A DNA stretch of 48,718 nucleotides, from assembly GCA_029856085.1 (NCBI GenBank), contig JAHQWI010000057.1, positions 1 to 48,718 of the forward strand. The letters are read 5' to 3'. The position numbers and the translations under genes were made by a program. The DNA is from Promethearchaeia archaeon (GTDB taxonomy: Archaea > Asgardarchaeota > Lokiarchaeia > Sigyniarchaeales > SOKP01). Below are positions 14,911-29,027 of this stretch, in pieces. Under the pieces are notes generated by a model that did no database searches, had not been told where the DNA came from, and was given only the letters and a program-made list of their open reading frames with translations. How positions within the stretch are numbered: the first letter of the stretch is position 1; the number at the start of each line of letters is the position of its first letter.

Positions 14911-16086
14911 TCATTCTAGTATACTGATAGGATATTTTCCATACTTTTCTCGAATATTCATTACAGTTTGCCAACGATCTAAAGTTACTGAAGGATTGAT
15001 ACTATGTCCACTACTAAAGATATATCCTCCTTCTGGTGCTAATTCTTTTATTAATTTCTTTGAATATTCTTCTATTTCTGAGATTGTTCCAGTAGATAAC
15101 ATTTGAGGGCTTATATTACCCACAAATGTGATCTTATCACCATATTTTTTATTTAGTTTGAAAATATCATATTCAGGATTTGCTGTTGTAGGTTCAATAG
15201 GATTTAAAGCATCAACTCCTGAATTAATTATATCTTCAAAAATTTCCAATAAATCCCCATCAGAATGGAGTAATACTTTACAATCTCGTTTATGAGCCGC
15301 AGCACATATTCTCTTTAACCAAGGAATTACATAAGTTCGATGCTTCTTAGGATTTATGAATAAGCCATTCTTAAAACCGTAGTCATCCCAGAGTAATATC
15401 ATTTCCGCACCGTTATCAGCTAATATTTTAACTAATTCTAATGTGAATTTACCCTTATCACCGAATATTTTTTCTGCTTGTTTATGTTTTCTTATTATTC
15501 TGGAAAATAGTGGTAACCCAAAACCTTGCCAGTTGTCTTCCATAATTGCTGCTGTTGATGGAACTACAAATATATCATTATTCATTTTTTTCTGTGCTTC
15601 TTTACCAGCTAAAAAACTAGATATTCGTATTTCGTCATAGGGATCTAAGGGTTCCCAGCTTTCATAATCCTCAAAACTTTTAAAAATTCCTCCGTAATAT
15701 CCCATGATTACAGTACCGTCCCCTTTATACCTTTCATATTTCATTATCCGACCATATTCATCTACAAATCCACTCCCATCATCTAAAATCATACGTGGAA
15801 ACAAAGAAACTCCACATAAAGCAATATCTAGTTTGATTCTTCGGTGAAATTCGTATTGTTTTACTAAAGAATCGGCTCTTTTCTTATAATCTTTATATCT
15901 GTTGCGCAAAATTTCAATATAATTTTTATTTCCTGCAAGAGGGATCAATGAATCTATAAGATTTCCCAAAACAGGGGTTCCATAATGAGCTTTTATAGTA
16001 TTGTTGGTAAAAGCACTTTCAAATGCAGGAACACGATCTGGTTCTTCATGATTTATTGTTGTTAATACTCTTGTTGGGGCATCCAT
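14911..16086 (-). CDS. Uroporphyrinogen decarboxylase / MtaA-CmuA methyltransferase family protein
   Basis: RVLTTINHEEPDRVP, WDDYGFK, LLHSDG, LNPIEP, GNIS, GGYIFSSGHSI. Confidence 0.88.
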   Translation of the reverse strand: MDAPTRVLTTINHEEPDRVPAFESAFTNNTIKAHYGTPVLGNLIDSLIPLAGNKNYIEILRNRYKDYKKRADSLVKQYEFHRRIKLDIALCGVSLFPRMILDDGSGFVDEYGRIMKYERYKGDGTVIMGYYGGIFKSFEDYESWEPLDPYDEIRISSFLAGKEAQKKMNNDIFVVPSTAAIMEDNWQGFGLPLFSRIIRKHKQAEKIFGDKGKFTLELVKILADNGAEMILLWDDYGFKNGLFINPKKHRTYVIPWLKRICAAAHKRDCKVLLHSDGDLLEIFEDIINSGVDALNPIEPTTANPEYDIFKLNKKYGDKITFVGNISPQMLSTGTISEIEEYSKKLIKELAPEGGYIFSSGHSINPSVTLDRWQTVMNIREKYGKYPISILE

Positions 16087-16103
16087 TAAAATAACCTTTT
16101 TTT

Positions 16104-18851
16104 TTAATTATTTTTTTTTATTATCCATTCTATTCGTTTTTCAGAGATTTTTTTCCCAATCCATTCTATCATATTATCTTTAACTTCGAAATTAATTGTA
16201 TTTCTATTAACTTCAATTGATTTTATAGTTTTAAGTTCTTTTTCTTTTAATTTTAGGCAAATTCTGAATTCTCCTTCATTTTTTGGGTCATACCATCCAG
16301 AATATCCATCCCTCGTTTTTATTAGTCCAGCAAGGGGAGAATCAAACTTATATTCTTCAAAAGGTAAACAGGGAGAATATTCTATTCCTTTTGGAGTAAA
16401 TTTAATACCTGCAAGATTTGTAGCGTTATAAAGCATCCAAGCGTGAGTATGCATATTCATTACAGGAAAGTCTGTCCAGTTAACAGGCATACCGATAATA
16501 GGATCATTTACACCACTTTTATTTTGCTCATTTTTCAATAAAGCCTCTTGAAAAATAGTCTGACCTGGGAATCTCGAAAGATATGAATTAAAAGTATCTG
16601 GACCGCTCCATATACCATACCAAATTTCAGGATATGCATCAGCATGGAATGCTAGTGTATTTTTTTTCCATTCATCCAAAGCAAGATCAGAATTAATAGA
16701 CGATAATGCTTTGATAAGTGTACCGTTTATTGATGGCCAGATTCCTGCGTTAGTACCAACTCCTGCAGCTCTTGCCATTCTGTCAATACCTTTGCTGTGT
16801 AAAAGCGCCCCTATTTTTGAAGGAGCTCTTAGTGATTTATTTATATTATCTAATAAAATTGGAATTTGGATTTTATCTGCAGCCCCGCTTAAAATTGCCC
16901 ATGGTTGAGGTGATAACCATAATAAATCATTTCCCACCCAACCAATATCATCTGTAAGCCAGGCTCTTTTGAACCAATTACCATTCCATTGGTTGTGAAC
17001 TGCTGTTCGCTGTTGAGTTGCTTTTTGTTGTGCATCCTTCGCTTTATCATCCTCCCCCATCATTAATAATAGTTTTGAATATAAATCCAAAACGAAAGAT
17101 GCCATTGATGCATTAAGAACACTTTCTCCATTTTCTGTAACTGCTTCAAATTCATTACTTGATACATAACCATGAACAATATTATCATTCCAATCTCCGT
17201 TATATAGTCGTTGTAATCCGTGTTTACCAATCCCAATCTCTGAGGTTAAAAACTCGTAGCAAAGGTGGAGAATTTCTTTTACTTTTTTATATTGGATATT
17301 TTTTTCGTAAATTGGATACATTGGAATGGTTTCTTCCAAGAAATCAAAATCTCTAGTTGCTAGTGTATACTCGCTAATAATCCATAATAACCATAATTGT
17401 TGATCACTGGGATTAAATCTGGTTAGTACAATCATACCATGACCTGAAATTCCATACGGGATTGCTCCGTTTTTTTGCACGGTTTTTAAAATATATCTTA
17501 TGACTTCTTTAACAATTTCAGGTTGAATAAAAATAAGTGGTAAAACATGTTGCAGTGGATCTCGTGCTGCTCCTTGAAATCCAATTAGATATTGATAAAT
17601 ATGTCCTTGTGAAATAATGTGTTCTTTAAAAAAACTATCATATGTTAAATTTCCTTGTAAATAGTAATTATGCCAAGTAAGTTCACGATCAATCCAATCC
17701 TCATTGGGAATTATTAGTTTTATCCTAATTTTTTCCCATGATTCACAAGATTGCGCAAAAATATCTGGAAGATTCTTTTTATATTTATTATAAAGAAAAT
17801 TAATATCAAATCCATCTGGTAAATAACCATAGGCAAAAGAGAGTGTTATTTTCTCCCCTGAATTTAATATAAATTTTCGTTCAATAAACATTCCATCTTC
17901 AAATTCTGAAGATGAAAGTTCTATGTTAAAGGATTTTTTTAACCCATCTGGAGATTTAATGCCACCTTCTCCGAAGAAATCTATATTATTCGTGGATATA
18001 CCATCAAATGGGGCATCTAATGAGATTAAAAATGTCGGTGGGGGGTTACAATCTTCAAAAGAAGCTTCTGGTACTGGAGGTATAATACCATTGGGATAAT
18101 TAAGTAGGTTTTCTTCTGCAAAATTTGTCTTTATTTTGTCCCAATTTTTGTTAAAATTAAAATTCTTCCCGAGAAATTCTTTAGTATTCAGAAGACCATT
18201 TCGATTTCCAATCATTTCATAACAATTTTTAAACAATTTTGCAAAATTCCTTCGAATTTCATAAAAAGATGATTTAAAAAATCTTGATTCTAGATATGCT
18301 TTTGATGAGAATTGAATTATATTTGTCCCCCAATATTCAATCCAGCGAAGGTTTATTGGTTCATCCCGTTCATTTTTAATAGATACTTGAGATATTAATA
18401 AAGGATCATCTCCATAAGGAGCAAAAATATTTTGACTAATGATTAAATTATGAGCTTGCACCTTTTTTTTATAATATCCAATTCCAAAAACGCGTTCAAA
18501 CGATTCATTTTTATTTTTTCCAGAATAATATGTGGAAATTATATTTTTCCCATCAGATAAATAGCCAAAACCTCCTGCAAATTGATTAGATTTGGGGTTA
18601 TAATCATTAAGGAACTTAGGTCCTCCCTCATCTTGTCTCACTTGGATGTATCCATAATTAGAAGCTACACCTACCAGTCTATGATTTCCAATTTCATGCA
18701 AATGTTCCGATTTCATCCGTAATTCTTCATTTACTGGGGAGATTGCTTTTGGATCATTTACTTGATCACATGTGTATTTATAAGCAGGTAAACCAAACTC
18801 ATCTGTAATCCACTTTCCAAAATAACCCGAACCATTCTGCTTATTTTTCAT
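16104..18851 (-). CDS. GH94-like glycoside phosphorylase / six-hairpin glycosidase
   Basis: GAARDPLQ, GKHGL..LYNGDWND, GESVLNA, WNGNWFKRAW, NAGIW. Confidence 0.8.
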   Translation of the reverse strand: MKNKQNGSGYFGKWITDEFGLPAYKYTCDQVNDPKAISPVNEELRMKSEHLHEIGNHRLVGVASNYGYIQVRQDEGGPKFLNDYNPKSNQFAGGFGYLSDGKNIISTYYSGKNKNESFERVFGIGYYKKKVQAHNLIISQNIFAPYGDDPLLISQVSIKNERDEPINLRWIEYWGTNIIQFSSKAYLESRFFKSSFYEIRRNFAKLFKNCYEMIGNRNGLLNTKEFLGKNFNFNKNWDKIKTNFAEENLLNYPNGIIPPVPEASFEDCNPPPTFLISLDAPFDGISTNNIDFFGEGGIKSPDGLKKSFNIELSSSEFEDGMFIERKFILNSGEKITLSFAYGYLPDGFDINFLYNKYKKNLPDIFAQSCESWEKIRIKLIIPNEDWIDRELTWHNYYLQGNLTYDSFFKEHIISQGHIYQYLIGFQGAARDPLQHVLPLIFIQPEIVKEVIRYILKTVQKNGAIPYGISGHGMIVLTRFNPSDQQLWLLWIISEYTLATRDFDFLEETIPMYPIYEKNIQYKKVKEILHLCYEFLTSEIGIGKHGLQRLYNGDWNDNIVHGYVSSNEFEAVTENGESVLNASMASFVLDLYSKLLLMMGEDDKAKDAQQKATQQRTAVHNQWNGNWFKRAWLTDDIGWVGNDLLWLSPQPWAILSGAADKIQIPILLDNINKSLRAPSKIGALLHSKGIDRMARAAGVGTNAGIWPSINGTLIKALSSINSDLALDEWKKNTLAFHADAYPEIWYGIWSGPDTFNSYLSRFPGQTIFQEALLKNEQNKSGVNDPIIGMPVNWTDFPVMNMHTHAWMLYNATNLAGIKFTPKGIEYSPCLPFEEYKFDSPLAGLIKTRDGYSGWYDPKNEGEFRICLKLKEKELKTIKSIEVNRNTINFEVKDNMIEWIGKKISEKRIEWIIKKNN

Positions 18852-18925
18852 AATATCTCTTTTCTCTTGTTTTATAATTAAAAAAAAAACTATTTATATC
18901 TAAAAAAATTTTAAGAAAAATAAAG

Positions 18926-18942
18926 TGTTACTTATCGTAACA
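18926..18942. promoter_or_regulatory. Operator TGTTAC-TTATC-GTAACA
   Basis: Perfect consensus in the divergent promoter between the GH94-like gene and the ABC operon. Confidence 0.75.
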
Positions 18943-18963
18943 AAAGATCTATAAACATTAAAA

Positions 18964-19022: not shown

Positions 19023-19793
19023 ATGGTCATGAAGATGGAAGAAGGTGAAAGCTTTGCGGGACATTTTAAATTGAATATGGGAAGACAAGGGAATTTCATA
19101 TTTGCCTTTATTTCAATCTTATTAGGATATTATGGTATCATAAGTAATTTGATCATGTTTGACATCTATGGGAATCAAATTCCATATACAGATCCAGAAC
19201 TTTTCGATCGTACCCTCTTAATTTGGTCGTTTTTAACATATGTAGAGACGTTATTCTTACCTCCAACGCTGTTATTTTTTGTTTGTTTTATTATTACTTA
19301 TAAAGAAGACATTCCACATTATGGAATTAAAGCTTCTATTTGGTTTGTTCCAATAATAATCTGCATTGGAATTTCTTGGTATTGGATAATGTTTGGTTTA
19401 TCAATTTTACCCTTACAACATCTATTCGGAAATTGGAAAGGGTATCTGAACATGTTCATACTATTATTGATTAATCTGAGTGGAGCAATCTCAGGTTTTA
19501 TGTTTAAAAAAATTGTACTACTCCGGAAACAACAAAAAGATCAAGAATTAGACAAAACAAAAATTAGCACTAAAAATATTATATTTTTTTACAGTTTAAT
19601 ATCAATTTTTTTATCATTTCTTTTATTCGCACTTATTAATGGTGTACTTAATTTCAATGTGTTTTCGTTTAACGAAAGTTCAAAGATCTTTGAAGTATTA
19701 ATATTTTATATGATAATTTTCAGTTTTTTAACGATGATTTTCTTGATATATAGAAAAATGATCCAAAAAATTAATAATAAAAGTTTTAGGTAA
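19023..19793 (+). CDS. Polytopic membrane protein of unknown function, first gene of the ABC operon
   Basis: About 6 hydrophobic segments; 6 bp gap to the permease. Confidence 0.8.
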   Translation: MVMKMEEGESFAGHFKLNMGRQGNFIFAFISILLGYYGIISNLIMFDIYGNQIPYTDPELFDRTLLIWSFLTYVETLFLPPTLLFFVCFIITYKEDIPHYGIKASIWFVPIIICIGISWYWIMFGLSILPLQHLFGNWKGYLNMFILLLINLSGAISGFMFKKIVLLRKQQKDQELDKTKISTKNIIFFYSLISIFLSFLLFALINGVLNFNVFSFNESSKIFEVLIFYMIIFSFLTMIFLIYRKMIQKINNKSFR

Positions 19794-19799
19794 AATCCA

Positions 19800-20858
19800 A
19801 TGGCTCCTGCTCAAAACATGATTAAATACATCATAAAGCGCATAATATTAATGATACCTATGCTATTTCTACTATTAATACTTACATGGGTTTTATCGCG
19901 TGTGATGGCAACCGATCCTGCAGCAAATATGTTTGATCCTTTTACTACTGATCCAGCTGCTGTGGAGGCAATGCGGGAAAAGTTAGGATTAAATGAACCT
20001 TGGTTGGTTCAATTAGGTATTTATTTAAGAAATTTCTTCTTAGGAGATTTGGGGGAATCTTACTTAGGTCGATCACAAGGTTATGAAGTTTCAGAATACC
20101 TTAAAATAATTATACCAAGAACTATTGAACTTATGATTGTACCAACAGTATTAACTCCAATAATTGCAGTTAAGCTTGGGGTGATATCTGCTGCAAAAAA
20201 AGACAAACCAGCGGATACATTAATCCGTGGTTTAGCAGTTGCAGGTTCAGCATTTCCTAGTTTTTTAATCGCTATGATCTTTATGTATTGTGGTTCTGTT
20301 ATTTTACCTGTATTTACAGGGGGAAAAATGTTTATTCCAACTTTTGGTTTTAAAAATCCAAGATTAGATGATCCGACTTCATATACAAATTTTAGAATAT
20401 TGGACTGCATTTTAAGCAATAGGATTGATCTTTTAATGGACTCTCTTCTTCATTTGTTACTTCCCATGTTAACAATGATTATGATTTCTCTAGCTGGAAT
20501 TACGAGGATTACCCGATCAACTATGCTTGATGTTTTACAACAAGATTATGTAAGAACTGCTAGAGCTAAAGGTTGTCCGGAAAGTAAAGTTATTAATAAA
20601 CATGCGCTTAGAAATGCAATGATTCCAACTTCAACCGTTATCGTTGCTGGAATTGCAAGTGCACTTATTGGGTCTGTAATAGTAGAAAGAGTTTTTAATT
20701 ATATTGGATTGGGATTCACTATGTGGGAAGCAATTTTATACAGCGATTATTGGATGATTCTTGGCATTATTATATACTTTGGAATCATCATTTTAGTTGC
20801 AAATTTAATTGCTGATGTGTTATATACTATAATTGACCCTAGAATCGTTTTTAAATGA
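19800..20858 (+). CDS. dppB: Opp/Dpp ABC permease subunit B
   Basis: KYIIKR, GDLGES, RSTMLDVLQQDYVRTARAKG, HALRNA, DVLYTIIDPRI. Confidence 0.92.
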   Translation: MAPAQNMIKYIIKRIILMIPMLFLLLILTWVLSRVMATDPAANMFDPFTTDPAAVEAMREKLGLNEPWLVQLGIYLRNFFLGDLGESYLGRSQGYEVSEYLKIIIPRTIELMIVPTVLTPIIAVKLGVISAAKKDKPADTLIRGLAVAGSAFPSFLIAMIFMYCGSVILPVFTGGKMFIPTFGFKNPRLDDPTSYTNFRILDCILSNRIDLLMDSLLHLLLPMLTMIMISLAGITRITRSTMLDVLQQDYVRTARAKGCPESKVINKHALRNAMIPTSTVIVAGIASALIGSVIVERVFNYIGLGFTMWEAILYSDYWMILGIIIYFGIIILVANLIADVLYTIIDPRIVFK

Positions 20859-20882
20859 AATAAAAAGTTAAATGTTTTTAAA

Positions 20883-21878
20883 ATGAATAATAAAAATCAG
20901 ATGGAATTAAAAGAGAGTTTCACAGAAACAAATAGCAATAAAACTAAGGAAAAATATAAAAGATTGCTGAAATTTTATCTTCTCCCATTTTGGAGAGATA
21001 AAGATTTTTCTGCTCAAGAATATGAACTCGGAAAAATTAAATCTAAAAGGAAACTATTTAATCGGTTATATACTCCTTTAACGATAGTTGGTGGAATATT
21101 ATTATTAGTTATTGCAATTTGTGCTGTTTATGCTATGTGGTTAACTCCTTATTCTATTTACGATCTGAATTCCCGTCCAGGTGTGAATCCATATTCACCT
21201 CCCACTGAAGATCATCCATTAGGAACAACCCAACTAGGATGGGATATATTGGGAAGATTAATGTTTGGTTGTAGAACTGCACTTACAGCAGGTTTAGTAG
21301 CTATAACTATAGCAGTTGTGTTTGGAGTCATCATTGGTATAATCTCAGCATATTTTGGGGGTATTATTGATTCATTAATTATGCGAACTTTTGACATAAT
21401 AATTGCATTCCCTAATTTAATATTAGTATTAATATATATCAGTATGTTTGGCTCAGAATTATCGAATATTTTACTAATTTATGGGATTTTAGGTGTGCCC
21501 AGATATGCTAGATTATTAAGGAGCTCTGTATTGCAAGGAAAACAAAATTTATATGTAAATGCTGCAAAAACAAGTGGTGCAGATAATTTTAGAGTGATGT
21601 TTAAACACATTTTTCCAAATGCAATTTCCCCTATTATCGCTTCTGTCTTTACTTCAATGGGAGCTACAATCCTGGGAATTTCTGCTTTAGCATTTCTCGG
21701 TTTTAGCGATAGCTCAATTATAGATTGGGGCACAGATATTAATGTCGGTAGAATTCGACTAATCACAAAACCATGGATTTCTTTATGGCCTGGAATTTTT
21801 ATCGCAATAACAGTTCTTGGATTTATGTTAATTGGAGATGGCATTAGAGATGCACTTGATCCTAAGTCAAAGAAATGA
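20883..21878 (+). CDS. dppC: Opp/Dpp ABC permease subunit C
   Basis: HPLGT..GWDI..R, YVNAAKTSGA, KHIFPN, LAFLG, GDGIRDALDPK. Confidence 0.92.
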   Translation: MNNKNQMELKESFTETNSNKTKEKYKRLLKFYLLPFWRDKDFSAQEYELGKIKSKRKLFNRLYTPLTIVGGILLLVIAICAVYAMWLTPYSIYDLNSRPGVNPYSPPTEDHPLGTTQLGWDILGRLMFGCRTALTAGLVAITIAVVFGVIIGIISAYFGGIIDSLIMRTFDIIIAFPNLILVLIYISMFGSELSNILLIYGILGVPRYARLLRSSVLQGKQNLYVNAAKTSGADNFRVMFKHIFPNAISPIIASVFTSMGATILGISALAFLGFSDSSIIDWGTDINVGRIRLITKPWISLWPGIFIAITVLGFMLIGDGIRDALDPKSKK

Positions 21879-21894
21879 ATGTAGGTGTTGAATT

Positions 21895-23952
21895 ATGATA
21901 ATGAATATTGGAATGAATGTTATTGAAACTACTTTTGGAGCATTATTATTAATAATTTTCATGTTAATTATCCAAATATTAAATTCTATAGAATTTAAAG
22001 TAAAACAAAAGAAAATATTTTTTATCTCAGTATTCCCTGTAATATATTCTTTCATTCTGGTGTTTTTAATTCGTTTAATTAATACAAGTTTTAGATTTTT
22101 ACCTGATAATACAGAATTTTATTTTGCTATAATGAGTAGTTTTTTTTGTCTTCTTCATTATTACTATTTTAAAAAATATATAAAAATAAATATGGAAAAA
22201 GCTAATTCGATAAAATATTTACTTAGATTTAGCTTTTTGTATGATATTGTCAATACAGATCCCAATACTAAAGAAGAGGATAAATTAAATCAAAAATATA
22301 TTAGAAAAATCATAAAATATTATTTCTTAATTATTGGTATTGTCTGGATCATTGCCTTATTATCGATCATTATTAATTTTTTCAGCATATATATCTATCT
22401 CCAATTTGAATTTGGGTTTCAATGGTCATTATATTTAATTATATCTTCAACATTTTTGACAAATATTGGAAACAAATTAATACCATTAGAGAAAAGAATA
22501 TCTCGTGAAATCATAAATTCATCAATGGTTGCTGCGGGTTTAGTTACTTATGGTATCTGGTCTTTACAATTATTGGTTTTTGGACTAGTTCTTCATTTCT
22601 ATTTTCATCTTGTTCTATATTTCACAATTATTCCCATTTTTTTTATATTCTTCTTGATTTTCTTCAAAAAAATCTATAAACCGAAATCTGCCAAGATTGT
22701 AAAAGTAGAAATTAAAAAAAAAGAATCATCAAAATTTGATAAAAAAATCTCTTCTAAAGAAAAAAATAAGGCACTTTTAAGTATTAAAGGGCTTAAAACT
22801 TATTTTTATACAGAAGAAGGTATCGTTCGAGCAGTAGAGGATGTTTCATTTTCAATTTTCGAAAATGAAGTAGTTGGACTTGTTGGAGAAACTGGTTGTG
22901 GTAAATCTGTGACAGCATTATCAATACTTCAGTTAATTCCTCATCCTGGAAAAATTGAGAAAGGAGAAATAATATTTAAAGGAGTAGATTTGCTTCAAAA
23001 GTCAATTAAAGAAATTCGGTCTTTCAGGGGAAATCAGATAACAATGATATTTCAAGATCCCTTAAATTCAGTTAATCCTGTTTTTAAAGTCGGGGAACAA
23101 ATATCTGAGGTTTATCTTTTACATCAACAGGATAAGTTACTCTCATCTGTAGTAGAAAATGAAATAAAACTTAATAAAATTCGAAAGTCCATCAATGAAT
23201 TAAAAAATAAAGATAATTCCATAGATCCCCTAATTTCTGAAAAAATACATGAATTAGAAAAAGAATATAATAGTTTATTAAAATATAAATCTATTTATAG
23301 TGTAGCAAGAGAATGGGGTCAGAATTTATTAAAAGATGTAGGAATACCTGATCCAGAGCAAGTTTATGATAGATATCCTCATGAACTAAGCGGTGGTATG
23401 CGTCAAAGAGTTATGATCGCTATGGGATTAGCTTGTTCTCCTAAATTATTAATTGCAGACGAACCAACTACAGCGTTAGATGTAACTATCGAGAAACAAA
23501 TTTTAAAGTTAATGAAAGAACTTAAAAATAAATACAACACATCTATTCTATATATCACTCATGATTTAGGTATTATTTCTAGGGTGTGTGATAGAGTTGC
23601 AGTCATGTATAGTGGTTATATTGTAGAGTATGGGGCAAAGATACAGTTATTTACAAAACCATATCATCCTTATACTCGTGGTCTTATTGAATCCATACCA
23701 GTAGTTGGAAAGGAAAGAGAATATTTGCCTATTATTCCAGGAATGGTTCCTAATTTAATTTATCCTCCTAAAGGATGTAGATTTCATCCTAGGTGTGATT
23801 ATTGTTTTAAACCTTGTGATAGTGTCATTCCTAAACAAATTGAAGTAGACCCAAATTATTACGTAGCATGTCATCTATACGATCCAAGATATCGTGATGA
23901 AGCTGAAATTGTTTTAAACCAAGAAAAGAATAACGATAAAAAAAAACACTAA
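21895..23952 (+). CDS. dppD: Opp/Dpp ABC ATPase D fused to an N-terminal polytopic membrane domain
   Basis: GETGCGKS, YPHELSGGMRQR, ADEPTTALD, GCRFHPRC..C..C; first ~260 aa hydrophobic. Confidence 0.9.
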   Translation: MIMNIGMNVIETTFGALLLIIFMLIIQILNSIEFKVKQKKIFFISVFPVIYSFILVFLIRLINTSFRFLPDNTEFYFAIMSSFFCLLHYYYFKKYIKINMEKANSIKYLLRFSFLYDIVNTDPNTKEEDKLNQKYIRKIIKYYFLIIGIVWIIALLSIIINFFSIYIYLQFEFGFQWSLYLIISSTFLTNIGNKLIPLEKRISREIINSSMVAAGLVTYGIWSLQLLVFGLVLHFYFHLVLYFTIIPIFFIFFLIFFKKIYKPKSAKIVKVEIKKKESSKFDKKISSKEKNKALLSIKGLKTYFYTEEGIVRAVEDVSFSIFENEVVGLVGETGCGKSVTALSILQLIPHPGKIEKGEIIFKGVDLLQKSIKEIRSFRGNQITMIFQDPLNSVNPVFKVGEQISEVYLLHQQDKLLSSVVENEIKLNKIRKSINELKNKDNSIDPLISEKIHELEKEYNSLLKYKSIYSVAREWGQNLLKDVGIPDPEQVYDRYPHELSGGMRQRVMIAMGLACSPKLLIADEPTTALDVTIEKQILKLMKELKNKYNTSILYITHDLGIISRVCDRVAVMYSGYIVEYGAKIQLFTKPYHPYTRGLIESIPVVGKEREYLPIIPGMVPNLIYPPKGCRFHPRCDYCFKPCDSVIPKQIEVDPNYYVACHLYDPRYRDEAEIVLNQEKNNDKKKH

Positions 23953-23957
23953 TAAAA

Positions 23958-25289
23958 GTGATTTCAATGTTATATACTATTCAAACTGATCCATTTATAT
24001 CTTCTTTACTTATATATATTTTTATAATGTTTGTTGATTTGGGTATTACTTTTTTCATTACCCATATTGGGAAAAATATGCAAAAAATCAGACCTAAGAA
24101 TAAAACCATAATTTCTTTAATAAGTACTTTTTCTGGATTTTTTTACATTACTATTATTTACATAAATAATACCAATATTTTATTTGATCAATTCATTGAT
24201 CAGATGGGTATCACAATTGGAATTTCTATGGTTATCAACCTAGTTCTAAAAATCTATGCAACTAAATTAGCTAAATTACAAAAATTAGTAGATATAAAAG
24301 TATTAGAAAAAGGAAAGAAACTCCTAGAAATTAAAAATTTAAAAATTTATTATCCAATCTATGGAGGGATGATAAAAAGGGTTATTGGAAATGTTAAAGC
24401 TGTAGACGATGTATCTTTTGATATTATAAGCGGAAGGACTATTGGTTTAGTTGGTGAAAGTGGATGCGGAAAAACTACGATTGCAAACTTTATTTTAGGA
24501 TTAGTTCCAAAAGAAGGGGGTTCAATTTTTTACCATGGGAAACCTATCACAAAAAAATACTCCAAATATTTAAGACAAAAAATTCAAATAGTGTTTCAAG
24601 ACCCAGATGCATCCCTAAATCCAAGGATGAAAGTGGTTGATCTAATATCAGAACCCCTTATCTGTCTATTAGGGATAACAAATAAAGATAAATTACGTCA
24701 AAAAGCTTTAAAATTACTGGAACAAGTTTCCCTAAAACGAGAACATTTGGATAGATATCCACACGAATTTTCTGGTGGACAAAAACAAAGAATCATAATT
24801 GCTAGGGCATTAGCATGTAATCCTGAATTAATCATCCTAGATGAACCTACTTCTGCGTTAGATGTATCCGTTCAAGCACAAATTCTAAATTTACTTAAGG
24901 ATTTACAATCTACATATGGTTATGGATTTCTATTTATTACTCATAACTTAGCAGTTGTAAATCATATTGCAGACAGAGTGGTGGTGATGTATCTTGGTAA
25001 ATTCGTCGAGATCGGAAATAAAAAGCAAATTTTTTCGAATCCAGCTCATCCTTATACAAAAGCTTTATTATCTTCACACTCTAAAATAGATCCTTATAAT
25101 GATGATTTGGGATTTGTGCTTGAAGGTGAAGTCCCAAGTCCAGTGAATCCTCCTTCAGGATGTTATTTCAATCCAAGATGCACTTCTGATGCTCGAACTA
25201 GTGCATGTGAAAATGAAACGCCCCGTAGGATAGAAATTGAGGAAGATCATTGCATTTGGTGCATAAAACCTCCTAAAAAAGATAACTAG
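23958..25289 (+). CDS. dppF: Opp/Dpp ABC ATPase F with N-terminal membrane extension
   Basis: GESGCGKT, YPHEFSGGQKQR, DEPTSALDVSVQAQILNLL, GCYFNPRC; first ~100 aa has about 3 hydrophobic helices. Confidence 0.9.
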   Translation: MISMLYTIQTDPFISSLLIYIFIMFVDLGITFFITHIGKNMQKIRPKNKTIISLISTFSGFFYITIIYINNTNILFDQFIDQMGITIGISMVINLVLKIYATKLAKLQKLVDIKVLEKGKKLLEIKNLKIYYPIYGGMIKRVIGNVKAVDDVSFDIISGRTIGLVGESGCGKTTIANFILGLVPKEGGSIFYHGKPITKKYSKYLRQKIQIVFQDPDASLNPRMKVVDLISEPLICLLGITNKDKLRQKALKLLEQVSLKREHLDRYPHEFSGGQKQRIIIARALACNPELIILDEPTSALDVSVQAQILNLLKDLQSTYGYGFLFITHNLAVVNHIADRVVVMYLGKFVEIGNKKQIFSNPAHPYTKALLSSHSKIDPYNDDLGFVLEGEVPSPVNPPSGCYFNPRCTSDARTSACENETPRRIEIEEDHCIWCIKPPKKDN

Positions 25290-25604
25290 TTTTTAAATTA
25301 ATTAGTTTTGGAACATAAACAGAAAAAAAAAGAATAACGGTCTTCGAGGTTATAAACTTACCTACAAGAGTCACTGAACTTACTTTTTTTTGATGGATTA
25401 CTTATATAAGAGAGAAAGAACCACATCTAAAATATGCATACACACTTCATTATATAACTCTTGGCAAGCATAGTATTTAAGATGTAAAAGAAACAAAGAC
25501 ATAACGCGTGAATCAACTTTTCTCAATCGTTACTAGCTAAAATTGGATGAAAGAATTCTGAAAAACATACTGAATCGTATATAATTCAAAAAAAACTGAA
25601 ATAA

Positions 25605-27137
25605 CAGTCTCAAAGGATTTAGATGTGAAAAATCTATTGAGCTGAATTGATATACATTAATATTTGACTCTTTCTAAATAATTTCGAATATTATTTCTTG
25701 TTTTTCATTTCCATCGGAAATTTAGCTGAATCTTTATAAGAAAGAAGTGATAATATTTATGTATGCAACTACAAAAAGTATCTCCTAACTCATTTAAGAG
25801 ATTGGGAGTTAAATCACTTCTCTCTGATGAATATATGTTGGCATTTTTTAAAAGGTTTTGTGATGCAATCACATCTCGCATTTGGAGGTTCAAAAAGCCG
25901 AGAAATTGGAAGTATACAGATATTGACTTTCTAAAGGTGTTCTTCTTCTCTGAAATTATAGGTAGATCCATTCACGATACCAGTGAGTTGTTGAACGAAC
26001 ATTTGTTAGATCATAAAAGAGGAAGGCGGAAAATATTTACGGATGGACGTAGAAGACGAATGATACCCCACCAAACAGAGGTAAACAAGTATTTAAGAAA
26101 GATAGGACTACAAAGAGCACGCAATATTTTACGTGAGTGTCTTGACATTCAATTATTAGAAGCATTAGATCTAAACCTTATTTCAAAGAAAGTAAATGTC
26201 TTAATTGACTTCACAGAGCATCCATATTATGGAAAAAGAGATGATAAGATGATAAAAGGGACAAATCGGCAGAAAGGAACACTTAAAATGCGTCATTATT
26301 TAGGATTTTCAATTTTATCTCGTGAAATTCATTTGTTCGCAGGATTGGAGCAAGTAGCAACAGGCCAATCCAAAATTCCAATTATTCTCAAGTTCATCGA
26401 TCATTTATTAAAATTGGGATTTGAGCTGAAATTTGTATTAATGGACCGAGAATTTTATAGAGCTGAGCTAATAGATGATATAAAACGAAAGGGAGGACAT
26501 GCACTAATTCCTGCTAAACAATATAAGAAGGTTAAACATCTTATCACTGAATATCTTGAAGGAAAGTATGGTAGAGTGCGGAAGTATACATTCTCAACTG
26601 CTACCGAAGCAAAGCGGCGATTTTGGCAGGATGTGTATCTCATAATAAAAGCGAAACGAGGTTTTTCTCTTCAAGGCGTCAAAAGAGATTATAGAGCCGG
26701 AAGAATAACTTTAAAGGATGCACATCATAGGATCTTCACCATAATGACAACTGAGAAGCCTAAGGGTAAAACCAGTTCGTGGGCATCCCGCACATCATTA
26801 TTTTATCGTCGAAGATGGTTAATTGAAACGGGGTTTTCCGACTTAAATCGGATTAATCGACGATGGAAATCAAACCATGATAATGTGCGCTATTTAGATA
26901 TGCTGGTTCGAATGCTTCTTTATAATTCTTGGAAAATGAATAAAAAGCTGATTCAAAAAACTCAAATGCAATACCAGAAATCCTGTAATTGGACATTAAA
27001 TCGAAATCAGGATAACCTTAAGGAGGCGTTTCTAACACTAGAGAAAAAATCATGGGGTGTGATCGGATAAATTCCAAATAATGTCGGTGTGCCGACCATA
27101 AGAAATAAATAAAAAAAAAGTAAATAATTAAATACTG
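25605..27137 (+). mobile_element. ISH3-family (IS4-like DDE) insertion sequence, left end uncertain
   Basis: Contains the transposase; right end ...AATTAAATACTG; candidate left ends CAGTCTC (25605) or TAGTATTTAA (25471); no clear target duplication. Confidence 0.55.
25763..27070 (+). CDS. DDE transposase, ISH3/IS4-like
   Basis: LIDFTEHPYYG, LMDREFY, YRRRWLIETGF (D-D-E with YxxRWxIE). Confidence 0.9.
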   Translation: MQLQKVSPNSFKRLGVKSLLSDEYMLAFFKRFCDAITSRIWRFKKPRNWKYTDIDFLKVFFFSEIIGRSIHDTSELLNEHLLDHKRGRRKIFTDGRRRRMIPHQTEVNKYLRKIGLQRARNILRECLDIQLLEALDLNLISKKVNVLIDFTEHPYYGKRDDKMIKGTNRQKGTLKMRHYLGFSILSREIHLFAGLEQVATGQSKIPIILKFIDHLLKLGFELKFVLMDREFYRAELIDDIKRKGGHALIPAKQYKKVKHLITEYLEGKYGRVRKYTFSTATEAKRRFWQDVYLIIKAKRGFSLQGVKRDYRAGRITLKDAHHRIFTIMTTEKPKGKTSSWASRTSLFYRRRWLIETGFSDLNRINRRWKSNHDNVRYLDMLVRMLLYNSWKMNKKLIQKTQMQYQKSCNWTLNRNQDNLKEAFLTLEKKSWGVIG

Positions 27138-27176: not shown

Positions 27177-29027
27177 TCATCTCTTCTTTTTGATCAAAAT
27201 AGATATAATCACTAAAGCTGAAAAACCAATGATTGCAAAAGTTGGAAATCCTGGAATCGGAGGTAGATCTGCTGCGGATGGACAGTCAGGATTATATTTT
27301 ATATTGTAAAAGTATGCTGCAGTCTTTGTTGGGTTACCTTCAAACTTACATGATAGTGCTGCGAAGGCTGGTTGTTGATAGAAGAACAAATGCGGATACA
27401 AGGATTGAACCTTTATAGTGATGTTATCAAACATTTCTTGTCGTGCTCCTCCAGCGTCAGATACTAAATCAACCTCCCAAATCCATTGATCTATATCAGG
27501 ATCTGAAATATTTGCCCAATTCAGATATGCACCTGATTGCCATCTTGGCTGCATGTAACTTGCTGGATCTCCATCTCCACCATATCCTACATTATATATC
27601 TCCAATAGTTTTCGTAAGGAAAGGGTTAACAATTTTGTAACTATATCTCCTGATATTTCTACTGACGATTCTATTAAACCTCCAATTGTACGGGCAGCAT
27701 CTTCAACATAAACAGCAATTGTATCCCAAGTAACTGACCGAGTAAATGTATGATTGAATAATGGAGTTGTATCGGCAATGTTTTCCCATGCTGCATTCAT
27801 GGCTGGAGTAGTTTCATTTGTTAAACCAGCAGTTTCAGTAGGAAAAGCATCAATCAAAGTTTGTCGAGCAATTGCAAGGTTGAGATATGGATGTTCGAGT
27901 GCTGGATTATAGTATTTAGAACCTACAGAGACGGGTCCACCGCCTGGTACTGCTAATCCATCAAGACCTACGTTTACCAAACCCCAATAATCGATAGCAT
28001 ATGAGAGAGCCTTTCGGACAGGTAATGCAATTCGTTGAGTGTTTAATACTCCCACTATTTGACCTCCAGAAAGACCAAGATCTATAACATTAACCAAGTT
28101 ACTTGAATTTAATGCATCGAAATCACTTTGACCGGATTCAATCCTTAAATAATCTGCTTGACCTGTCAAAATTGCATTTTCTTGAGTAGCTTGATCTTCA
28201 AAGAATGTAAATATAATTTCAGAAACATTTGCTGGCCCTCGGTAGTAATCATCAAATCTATAAATATGTCCAAACTCTGCTGAATGTTCTCCTAAAGTAT
28301 ATGGTCCGGTTGCCGTTAAATTTTCATGTCCCCAGAACGGTTTGTGTTGAAAGTCTGCATAGTATGTCGGAGATATCATTGAAAATATCGTACTTGTGAG
28401 GATATTATCCGAGGCTGAAAATTCACGACTTCCTCCTTGGATTTGAACCGTGAACTCATCAATAACTGTCGTTTGCTTTATTCTTGGAAAATAACTCCCA
28501 GGTGGTGCCGATGAATAGTTCCAATCCGCTGTGAAATAATCTCGATAAGGATCAATAGGAACCCACAGCGTTAAATTGTGATTATTCCACAAAGGATTAG
28601 TTGATCCGATTATTTCATAAACCCTATCAAAATTCCACTTAACACACGATGCATTAAACGGTGTACCATCATGGAAGACGACATCATCCCTTAGTGTAAC
28701 ATTTATTGTTGTAGCATTATGTTGAACAAAACTTTCAGCCAGTTCGTAGGTTAAATCCCCTCCAGGATGGTTATTTTCTTTTCCAAAAAGTTGCTCAAGG
28801 ATATTTTGACTATATTCACCGAAAATCCTTGTTGCTTTATAAACTGCTGGATCGACATCTGTAAATTGTCCTGGAGTTACTGTCGCAAAGATAAGAACAG
28901 GTTCTTCTTCTTCTTGAGCAGAAACACCAATTAGATGTATATTTACTGAGCTAAGCATAACCAGAATTAAAACAAATATACTAAATTTCTTTTTATTAAA
29001 TTTCATGTCAATTTTCCTCTTTTTCAA
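27177..29027 (-). CDS. Family-5 ABC solute-binding protein with signal peptide and C-terminal IPGF-TM-basic anchor
   Basis: LRDDVVFHDGTPFNASCVKWNFDR, TGPY, VRKALSYAID; tail IPGFPTFAIIGFSALVIISILIKKKR; start may be ATG at 29006. Confidence 0.92.
   Translation of the reverse strand: MKKRKIDMKFNKKKFSIFVLILVMLSSVNIHLIGVSAQEEEEPVLIFATVTPGQFTDVDPAVYKATRIFGEYSQNILEQLFGKENNHPGGDLTYELAESFVQHNATTINVTLRDDVVFHDGTPFNASCVKWNFDRVYEIIGSTNPLWNNHNLTLWVPIDPYRDYFTADWNYSSAPPGSYFPRIKQTTVIDEFTVQIQGGSREFSASDNILTSTIFSMISPTYYADFQHKPFWGHENLTATGPYTLGEHSAEFGHIYRFDDYYRGPANVSEIIFTFFEDQATQENAILTGQADYLRIESGQSDFDALNSSNLVNVIDLGLSGGQIVGVLNTQRIALPVRKALSYAIDYWGLVNVGLDGLAVPGGGPVSVGSKYYNPALEHPYLNLAIARQTLIDAFPTETAGLTNETTPAMNAAWENIADTTPLFNHTFTRSVTWDTIAVYVEDAARTIGGLIESSVEISGDIVTKLLTLSLRKLLEIYNVGYGGDGDPASYMQPRWQSGAYLNWANISDPDIDQWIWEVDLVSDAGGARQEMFDNITIKVQSLYPHLFFYQQPAFAALSCKFEGNPTKTAAYFYNIKYNPDCPSAADLPPIPGFPTFAIIGFSALVIISILIKKKR

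Follow-up and report, generated by a model that had tools for sequence, protein, structure and literature searches.

Opp/Dpp-type importers with membrane-fused ATPase subunits in a clade of Lokiarchaeia

Both ATPases of an Opp/Dpp-type ATP-binding cassette (ABC) importer encoded in a Lokiarchaeial genome carry N-terminal membrane domains of their own, and a further membrane protein is encoded at the head of the same operon. The operon (positions 19023-25289, forward strand) lies in a stretch of DNA of 48,718 nucleotides, here called the window, that represents contig JAHQWI010000057.1 of the Promethearchaeia archaeon assembly GCA_029856085.1 (Lokiarchaeia, order Sigyniarchaeales). Few membrane machines are understood as well as type I ABC importers, which are taken to follow a fixed plan: a binding protein, two permeases and two ATPases that are soluble. 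Asgard archaea are the closest known prokaryotic relatives of eukaryotes. We conclude that the membrane-anchored ATPase architecture is almost certainly real and conserved. The added domains may serve as peripheral tether and assembly modules around an ordinary importer core, and we give this explanation as a whole, mechanism included, an even chance of being right.

Results

The five genes form a single tight operon in the order lead-OppB-OppC-OppD-OppF, with intergenic gaps of 6, 24, 16 and 5 bases. The lead gene (19023-19793) encodes a 256-residue membrane protein without known family. It is followed by an OppB-type permease (19800-20858, 352 residues, six helices predicted from hydropathy) that matches the Pfam families BPD_transp_1 (E 2e-39) and BPD_transp_1_N, and by an OppC-type permease (20883-21878, 331 residues) that matches BPD_transp_1 (E 6e-29) and, under the cut-off of that model, OppC_N (E 5e-4). 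EAA-type loops can be read in both permease sequences (RTARAKG...ALRNAMIP in OppB, AAKTSGA...HIFPNAISP in OppC). OppD (21895-23952, 685 residues) and OppF (23958-25289, 443 residues, GTG start with an ATG at codon 4) each consist of an N-terminal membrane part and an ATPase. In case of OppD, AlphaFold and alignments delimit the membrane domain to residues 1-293 (21895-22773), and the ATPase proper (22774-23952) was assigned by Pfam, the NCBIfam OppD/DppD models and a sequence search of the PDB, with the Pfam matches ABC_tran and oligo_HPY placing the ATPase from residue 315 onward. In case of OppF, hydropathy and alignment delimit a membrane extension of three predicted helices (residues 1-128, 23958-24341). 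Its ATPase proper (24342-25289) is covered by ABC_tran and oligo_HPY from residue 150 onward and by the NCBIfam DppF/OppF models over residues 116-437.

The catalytic motifs of both ATPases are intact. OppD carries the Walker A motif GETGCGKS, the signature LSGGMRQR, the Walker B motif LLIADEPTTALD and the H-loop ITHDL; the corresponding elements of OppF are GESGCGKT, FSGGQKQR, LIILDEPTSALD and ITHNL, followed by a cysteine-rich C-terminal region. The cysteines in the oligo_HPY C-terminal region of OppD are spaced C-x5-C-x6-C-x17-C. By sequence, all core features that were tested place the system in the Opp/Dpp type I importer family: two BPD_transp_1 permeases with EAA loops and two ABC_tran plus oligo_HPY ATPases with intact motifs. 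A trait that is usual, although not formally defining, for this family is that the ATPase subunits are soluble and begin with the ATPase domain, and neither D nor F shows it. The preliminary description of this DNA had proposed an Opp/Dpp-type importer in which both canonical permeases are present separately, both ATPases carry membrane domains and an extra polytopic gene leads the operon. This outline was borne out by the BPD_transp_1 matches of OppB and OppC, by seven helices in D (AlphaFold) and three in F (hydropathy), each N-terminal to the ATPase, and by the 256-residue lead protein.

Further features of the ATPase domains were observed. The C-terminal regions of both (23620-23820 and 25005-25190) retain cysteines that ligate a 4Fe-4S cluster in E. 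coli DppD and DppF. The OppF spacing is C-x5-C-x8-C-x14-C-x2-C, and codon 432 is changed from Cys to Tyr in one strain contig. The OppD ATPase contains a coiled-coil-like insertion of about 60-70 residues between Q-loop and signature (residues about 400-470, window positions 23090-23300), so that its ABC_tran match spans 212 residues on a model of 137 positions. This insertion is order-wide, since the soluble OppD proteins of the order are also about 405-440 residues long.

The AlphaFold model of OppD residues 1-284 has a mean predicted local distance difference test score (pLDDT) of 77.9 and a predicted template modeling score of 0.68. It contains seven helices (residues 2-30, 38-66, 73-100, 127-162, 168-195, 204-237 and 245-284), followed by a lysine-rich linker, while hydropathy of residues 1-263 gives five to six hydrophobic segments. 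Applying the positive-inside rule, we read the N-terminus as probably outside and the C-terminus and all Lys/Arg-rich loops as inside. The best-conserved motif of the domain in alignments, PIEKRIPK, lies in the predicted cytoplasmic loop ahead of helix 6. Two other motifs in or near helices, ELYL and QDIR, are kept by relatives and are both absent from the window copy. OppD paralogues of 980-1029 residues repeat the seven-helix module in tandem and have 13-15 predicted helices (contig C152, locus L049:16055-19006; L043:8079-11021; L051:8599-11688). Representative OppD-domain proteins of 997 and 1008 residues contain three matched stretches each, and the domain counts as doubled or tripled in some paralogues.

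We refer to the clade of Lokiarchaeial Opp/Dpp-type importers with membrane-fused OppD and OppF as class T and to the soluble-ATPase class as class S. Hydropathy of OppF residues 1-102 in the window gives three hydrophobic segments, which by alignment are the last three helices of a roughly seven-helix extension present in many orthologues. The best-conserved motif of the extension, WGDKIQLIK, occupies the loop two helices before the ATPase. Long OppF proteins (562-669 residues) occur in 9 of the 16 larger loci, most with about seven predicted helices and two with five and 13, and short ones like that of the window (425-486 residues, 2-4 predicted helices) in 7 of the 16. The earlier figure of about three OppF helices thus holds for the window copy, which is the short form. 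Separately, the OppF proteins of class S can be interrupted, between the Walker A region and the Q-loop, by an insertion of about 100-230 residues that contains two helices of strong hydrophobicity. It is present in three of six aligned class S OppF proteins (contig C107, locus L050:12664-14184; L053:4758-6176; L063:2026-3792) and may represent a second, independent route of placing an Opp ATPase in the membrane.

We searched for relatives of the accessory parts at the level of families, folds and complexes. For OppD 1-293, OppF 1-128 and lead, neither Pfam, reported at E-values up to 10, nor NCBIfam yielded a family; the best row for these parts was DUF3784 (E 0.004), far below the cut-off. 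A Foldseek search of the OppD domain against the PDB gave a best E-value of 0.61, with generic seven-helix receptors at template modeling scores of about 0.2, which is noise level. The exhaustive VIA fold search gave a best Z of 8.1 with partial helical matches in the noise band, and comparison with the ESM Atlas gave no usable match. Such noise-band matches neither assign nor exclude any fold. The family and structure searches that had been suggested for these regions were thus run, with no family for any of them and fold rows at noise level for D and lead. A complex prediction of OppB, OppC and the D membrane domain scored 0.00 against a mark of 0.32, was made without controls and speaks neither for nor against binding.

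A duplicated or fused OppB/OppC permease was considered as a source of the OppD domain and rejected. The domain has no BPD_transp_1 match, and hhalign gave probabilities of 0.1% with OppB and 0.4% with OppC. As both values are below 1%, the OppD domain is not a permease duplicate. This upholds the earlier view that the added domains, which have no BPD_transp_1 match, are not permease-like, and the concern that the N-termini might be ordinary OppC domains found no support, as no homology to OppC was detected. A common origin of the OppD domain with the OppF extension or with lead was likewise rejected (hhalign probability below 1% for each of the two pairs compared, D/F and D/lead).

The fusions recur well beyond the window. 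The same genome holds three Opp operons: that of the window, one on contig C152, in which OppD (983 residues, about 13 helices) repeats the D module and OppF has 586 residues and seven helices, and one on contig C107 with a soluble OppD of 421 residues. Among 101 genomes of the order, the window's own included, the OppD domain was found in 29 and the OppF extension in 30. The survey of Asgard OppD and OppF proposed in the preliminary description therefore recovered the same fusions both in a paralogue from the same genome and in other members of the order. In all 11 loci examined in other genomes, the OppD-domain match and the Walker A motif share one open frame of 625-710 residues, and all 13 complete larger loci have the arrangement lead-OppB-OppC-OppD(fused)-OppF(fused). 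In a phylum sample of 301 genomes, 22 contained the OppD domain. Within the window's family, 19 of 68 genomes had it, as did the window's own genome; there was one strong and one weak match elsewhere and, among the genomes searched, none in the 26 other families sampled.

A word-based protein search with OppD 1-300 returned only five proteins, and a full HMMER profile search was used for this reason. It yielded only 61 clusters among 1.84 billion representative proteins. Walker A follows the membrane domain in 21 of 21 OppD-domain proteins that extend that far. In a Pfam scan of 37 such proteins, ABC_tran was matched by 18 and oligo_HPY by 15, next to generic P-loop models, and no other family recurred. 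Because no other partner domain recurs and Walker A always follows, the OppD domain exists only as an OppD appendage. Enlarged OppB proteins of 408-431 residues with 7-8 predicted helices, compared with the usual 355 or so residues and 5-6 helices, were seen in some fused-class operons (L039:3826-5121, L044:6715-7992, L046:11449-12675, L047:7512-8807), where the permease has gained membrane segments too.

The membrane domains evolve faster than the ATPases to which they are joined. Identity between the window proteins and their orthologues is 31% in the N-terminal domain and 68% in the ATPase of OppD, and 32% and 72%, respectively, in OppF. Over the eight closest pairs of each gene, the ratio of nonsynonymous to synonymous substitution rates (dN/dS) was 0.21-0.42 in the N-terminal domain and 0.07-0.17 in the ATPase of OppD, and 0.29-0.73 and 0.09-0.22 in OppF, with dN biased downward by the choice of pairs as closest by N-terminal identity. 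On these patterns, we take the extensions to be constrained, translated protein that is three- to five-fold more relaxed than the ATPase, F more than D. In a tree of the OppD ATPase domain, 22 fused and 13 soluble proteins fall on opposite sides of one branch (Shimodaira-Hasegawa-like approximate likelihood ratio test support 96); this is a quick tree, and its two groups were defined by feature and collected with different queries. Since fused and soluble OppD part at one branch, a single gain or a single loss would account for the distribution. The window OppD branches early within the fused clade, which fits its divergent membrane domain without ELYL and QDIR.

All of this presupposes that the fused frames are real. 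The rival explanation is an annotation or assembly artifact, in which the ATPases would start internally and the upstream frames would be small genes, non-coding AT-rich DNA or frameshift fusions. It can draw on base composition, as AT-rich DNA (GC fraction 0.22) readily encodes peptides rich in Ile, Phe, Leu and Lys, on A-homopolymers within the OppD linker and on in-frame ATGs at OppF codons 83 and 91. Yet the frames of lead and of the N-terminal parts of D and F contain no stop codon, whereas 20,000 shuffles of each stretch (GC 0.22-0.27) gave not one open frame and the other five frames hold 14-34 (D), 6-20 (F) and 8-26 (lead) stops. In OppD, a Shine-Dalgarno-like AGGTG stands 7 bases upstream of the ATG at 21895, and the last in-frame ATG, GTG or TTG codons ahead of the ATPase are codons 211, 227 and 254, all within the membrane domain. 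An internal OppD start, one of the doubts raised at the outset, is thus argued against by the absence of any start codon between codon 254 and the ATPase, although the TTG at codon 254 in helix 7 may still serve as a start. For OppF, a start at codon 83 or 91 may occur and would yield a one-helix form.

Assembly or read errors as a source of the fusions are contradicted by independent contigs that cross both junctions without insertions or deletions. Sediment metagenomes from about 10 studies contain nearly identical DNA, and contigs from four public runs over the operon show no insertion or deletion. One metagenome contig bridges 22438-22908, which is the OppD linker including its A runs, and a second one, 8.1 kb long and from a different strain, aligns without a gap over 23361-25300 and carries 29 substitutions. 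Further points against an artifact are that the fusion is kept in all 11 loci of other genomes and in every D gene of the 16 class T loci, that the paralogue in the same genome is also fused, and that dN/dS is below 1, protein motifs are conserved and AlphaFold is confident on the OppD domain. For OppD, the artifact reading is already contradicted, and overall we regard it as scarcely credible.

The lead protein was characterized separately. Its core (residues 1-175) contains four helices and its tail (residues 176-256) another two in an AlphaFold model with pLDDT 83.6; hydropathy gives six segments. Besides the window protein, only its three closest relatives (251-257 residues, BLAST identity 71-78%) have the two-helix tail. 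Alignments reveal two invariant motifs, GRQG and TYKE(D/E)IPxYGxKAS, and at about 50% identity to class T orthologues lead is the best-conserved accessory part. Wherever a source names one of its 136 relatives, the name is 'hypothetical protein', and they come from Promethearchaeota or Lokiarchaeota genomes, apart from three labeled Hodarchaeales, Hermodarchaeota and 'bacterium'.

Of the 101 genomes of the order, 69 contain lead, which lies directly 5' of OppB in 13 class T loci. Distant homologues from 15 loci lie directly upstream of OppB-OppC in 14 of 14 cases extending far enough, and 12 of the 13 such loci with an OppD encode a soluble one. Because it heads soluble-ATPase operons too, lead is a general fifth membrane subunit of the order's Opp systems and not a fusion companion. 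The extra leading gene of the preliminary description is thus a conserved polytopic subunit that is not specific to the fused form. Fold searches with the lead model remained in the noise band (Foldseek best E 0.43, VIA best Z 6.2). Substrate-binding S-components of energy-coupling factor (ECF) transporters specific for folate were within the noise as well, with FolT chains at Z 5.0-5.8 (4z7f_A: Z 5.8, root-mean-square deviation 7.9, 137 aligned residues). In the ESM Atlas, only Promethearchaeota clusters of 'hypothetical protein' were recovered (0.91); Bathyarchaeota clusters (0.86) fell under the threshold of 0.9.

The window also encodes a candidate receptor. A family-5 solute-binding protein (27177-29027, reverse strand, 616 residues, SBP_bac_5 E 9e-41) ends in a Loki-CTERM anchor (NF033507, 21.0 bits, cut-off 19.9), a sorting domain by which the window is placed in Lokiarchaeia. 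Its gene is convergent to the operon, and an insertion sequence with a DDE transposase gene (25763-27070, forward strand, DDE_Tnp_1 E 1e-9) lies between the two. Homologues of this transposase also adjoin the Opp loci L040, L065 and L066. In 12 of the 13 complete class T loci, and in locus L048, which has no adjacent lead, a divergent binding-protein gene stands beside the operon. The flanking proteins of orthologous loci have 693-791 residues in 12 cases and 617 in one (G011), and the window protein is 22-25% identical to those of 693-791 residues. In the window, the slot of this divergent gene is occupied by genes for a GH94-like protein with catalytic and supersandwich domains (16104-18851, reverse strand, 915 residues) and a URO-D-family protein (14911-16086, reverse strand), both divergent from the operon.

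The GH94-like neighbor might be a hint of an oligosaccharide substrate, and both peptides and oligosaccharides are candidates. The hydrophobic substrates suggested in the preliminary description are not pointed to by any result of this analysis. Neighbors vary among orthologous loci and include PFL-like glycyl radical enzymes (five loci), GH32, a sulfatase, an ADP-ribosylglycohydrolase and an AMP-binding enzyme. Open reading frames of 814-821 residues follow OppF in five fused-class loci and are paired in two of them (L037:13370-15814; L038:13225-15690 and 16498-18948; L042:12844-15291; L044:12562-15012 and 15109-17559; L045:4438-6885). Scans of two of them (L037:13370-15814 and L038:16498-18948) showed glycyl radical enzymes with PFL-like and Gly_radical matches. 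In Table 1 of PMC11284389, a family-5 binding protein ranks first among the identified proteins of a cultured relative, P. syntrophicum. Since such a protein tops that table, Opp-type uptake is probably central to the physiology of the lineage.

Discussion

The evidence above is most simply arranged around an importer core that would work in the ordinary way. A family-5 binding protein would hand substrate to OppB/OppC, whose EAA loops would couple to the two ATPases, in which the catalytic motifs and Fe-S cysteine ligands are retained, and transport would run through this core. The added membrane domains would be peripheral modules, similar in placement to the N-terminal TMD0 domains of some ABC proteins, and would form no translocation path. 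The lysine-rich helical linker would keep each ATPase permanently attached to the membrane next to its permease, and the sides and cytoplasmic loops of the modules may serve as contact surfaces through which the complex is assembled, stabilized or positioned. Lead would most likely bind the common core, either OppB/C or the ATPases, via its invariant cytoplasmic loop. That the added domains are peripheral and not part of the translocation pathway is suggested by their fast evolution, by helix numbers that range from 3 to 15 and by a D module that can be duplicated in tandem. Tethering would be the reading that fits the evolutionary pattern best.

Several observations weigh against this interpretation. 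Tethering takes only one helix and does not account for seven conserved ones. The conserved polar motifs of the OppD domain (PIEKRIPK, ELYL, QDIR) could mean a job more specific than anchoring. Constraint on the OppF extension is weak, with dN/dS up to 0.73, and in the strain contig six of six differences in the OppF extension are nonsynonymous compared with 9 of 15 in the OppF ATPase, a small sample. The downward bias of dN and the quick tree of groups defined by feature, both noted above, count on the same side.

A regulatory role is the main rival of the tether and assembly reading. Here, the D and F domains, perhaps together with lead, would sense a cue in or across the membrane, for example the state of the lipids, a ligand or a docked binding protein, and would gate ATP hydrolysis by way of the linker and the conserved cytoplasmic loops. 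They would be membrane-embedded counterparts of the regulatory domains at the C-termini of MalK or MetN. Such a role would explain why seven helices exceed the need of a tether, and it is in agreement with purifying selection on the OppD domain and with the conserved motifs, namely the charged ones of OppD (PIEKRIPK in a cytoplasmic loop and ELYL/QDIR in or near helices), the WGDKIQLIK loop two helices before the ATPase of OppF and the invariant cytoplasmic TYKE(D/E)IPxYGxKAS of lead. However, no likeness to a known sensor fold or family was detected by Pfam, Foldseek or VIA, and the window OppD keeps the domain yet has neither ELYL nor QDIR. The wide variation in helix number, the tandem duplication of the module and the weak constraint on the OppF extension also fit poorly with a sensor, and we consider it unlikely on balance.

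A second transport function has less in its favor. The D and F membrane domains would pair as two halves, each a transmembrane domain joined to its nucleotide-binding domain, and form a pathway of their own, powered by the same ATPases, for example for a hydrophobic or lipid-linked substrate. A polytopic domain N-terminal to the ATPase is indeed the domain order of many ABC half-transporters, and many orthologues have about seven helices on each of D and F. Nevertheless, the added domains of OppD and OppF matched neither ABC_membrane nor any other transporter family at E-values up to 10, fold matches were at noise level only (Foldseek best E 0.6, VIA best Z 8.1), and the two domains are not homologous to each other. 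OppF has only three helices in the window, a short form also seen in 7 of 16 larger loci, and D can have 13-15. Further, canonical EAA-loop permeases are always present and would fill the coupling grooves. Taken together, this makes a second pathway highly improbable. Returning to the tether and assembly reading, it may also understate what the modules do: the D domain, the F domain with its three to seven helices and lead could form a new membrane apparatus beyond anchoring, in which ATP hydrolysis is gated by a membrane or extracellular cue or import is coupled to a second membrane process. The handling of a lipid-linked or hydrophobic moiety, or the organization of transporters on the protrusion-rich, S-layer-poor Asgard cell surface, might be examples of such a process. 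We regard this broader proposal as doubtful; if it is true, a functionally new class of ABC-importer subunit would have arisen within Lokiarchaeia.

With regard to significance, a whole clade breaks the fixed plan of type I importers, in that both ATPases are integral membrane proteins whose added domains have no recognizable family or fold. A fifth membrane subunit is shared by all Opp operons of the order, and the fusion, traced to one change on the tree, has been maintained by selection in these uncultured archaea. In class T, nature provides a way to ask whether tethering ABC ATPases to the membrane has consequences for assembly, stability or regulation, and the D domain, the F extension and lead are three new membrane-protein families for structural study. 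A search of the full-text literature by titles and the beginnings of abstracts, with subscription journals outside its coverage, returned no Opp/Dpp ATPases with membrane domains of their own and no lead subunit.

In comparison with known systems, accessory membrane elements on a conserved ABC core are familiar from the N-terminal helices of MalF, the LptC helix in LptB2FGC and the S-components of ECF transporters. To our knowledge, none of these systems carries a polytopic domain on an ATPase subunit. Lead resembles ECF S-components only in being small and polytopic, as its core has four helices compared with six and no Pfam or NCBIfam match. The TMD0 of the eukaryotic ABC transporters TAP1/2 and of the ABCC family, an extra N-terminal membrane bundle outside the translocating core that serves interaction or localization, is a closer parallel. 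It precedes the core membrane domain of an exporter-type chain, whereas the bundle described here leads directly into the ATPase of an importer with separate permeases. No sequence or fold similarity to TMD0 was found, and the likeness is a functional analogy only. In the abstract of PMC6199259, the TMD0 of TAPL is described as an interaction and targeting hub.

The nearest solved relatives of the OppD ATPase in a PDB sequence search are OppD and DppD of M. tuberculosis and of E. coli. Against the solved OppBCDF/DppBCDF systems (E. coli DppBCDF 8z1v and OppD/F 8z21, M. tuberculosis OppABCD 8j5q and DppABCD 8wd9), the D ATPase aligned with E-values of 1e-100 to 3e-81. The window shares with them two EAA permeases, two ABC_tran plus oligo_HPY ATPases and the 4Fe-4S cysteine spacing, and it encodes a family-5 binding protein as a candidate receptor. 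The OppD spacing C-x5-C-x6-C-x17-C is identical to that of the four 4Fe-4S ligands of E. coli DppD as given in PMC12136057, which also reports that this cluster is required for complex stability and that the E. coli translocator is a B-C-D-F heterotetramer with contacts B-D and C-F. The departure from this architecture lies in membrane-integral ATPases and a fifth subunit. Solved OppD/DppD chains begin at the ATPase, with 327-336 residues in E. coli and 548-612 residues, forming two tandem ATPase domains, in M. tuberculosis, whereas in the window 293 residues (D) and 128 residues (F) of membrane domain stand in front and lead is added as a further membrane subunit. Summed from hydropathy and AlphaFold, the window complex would contain about 28 membrane helices, compared with 12 for two six-helix permeases.

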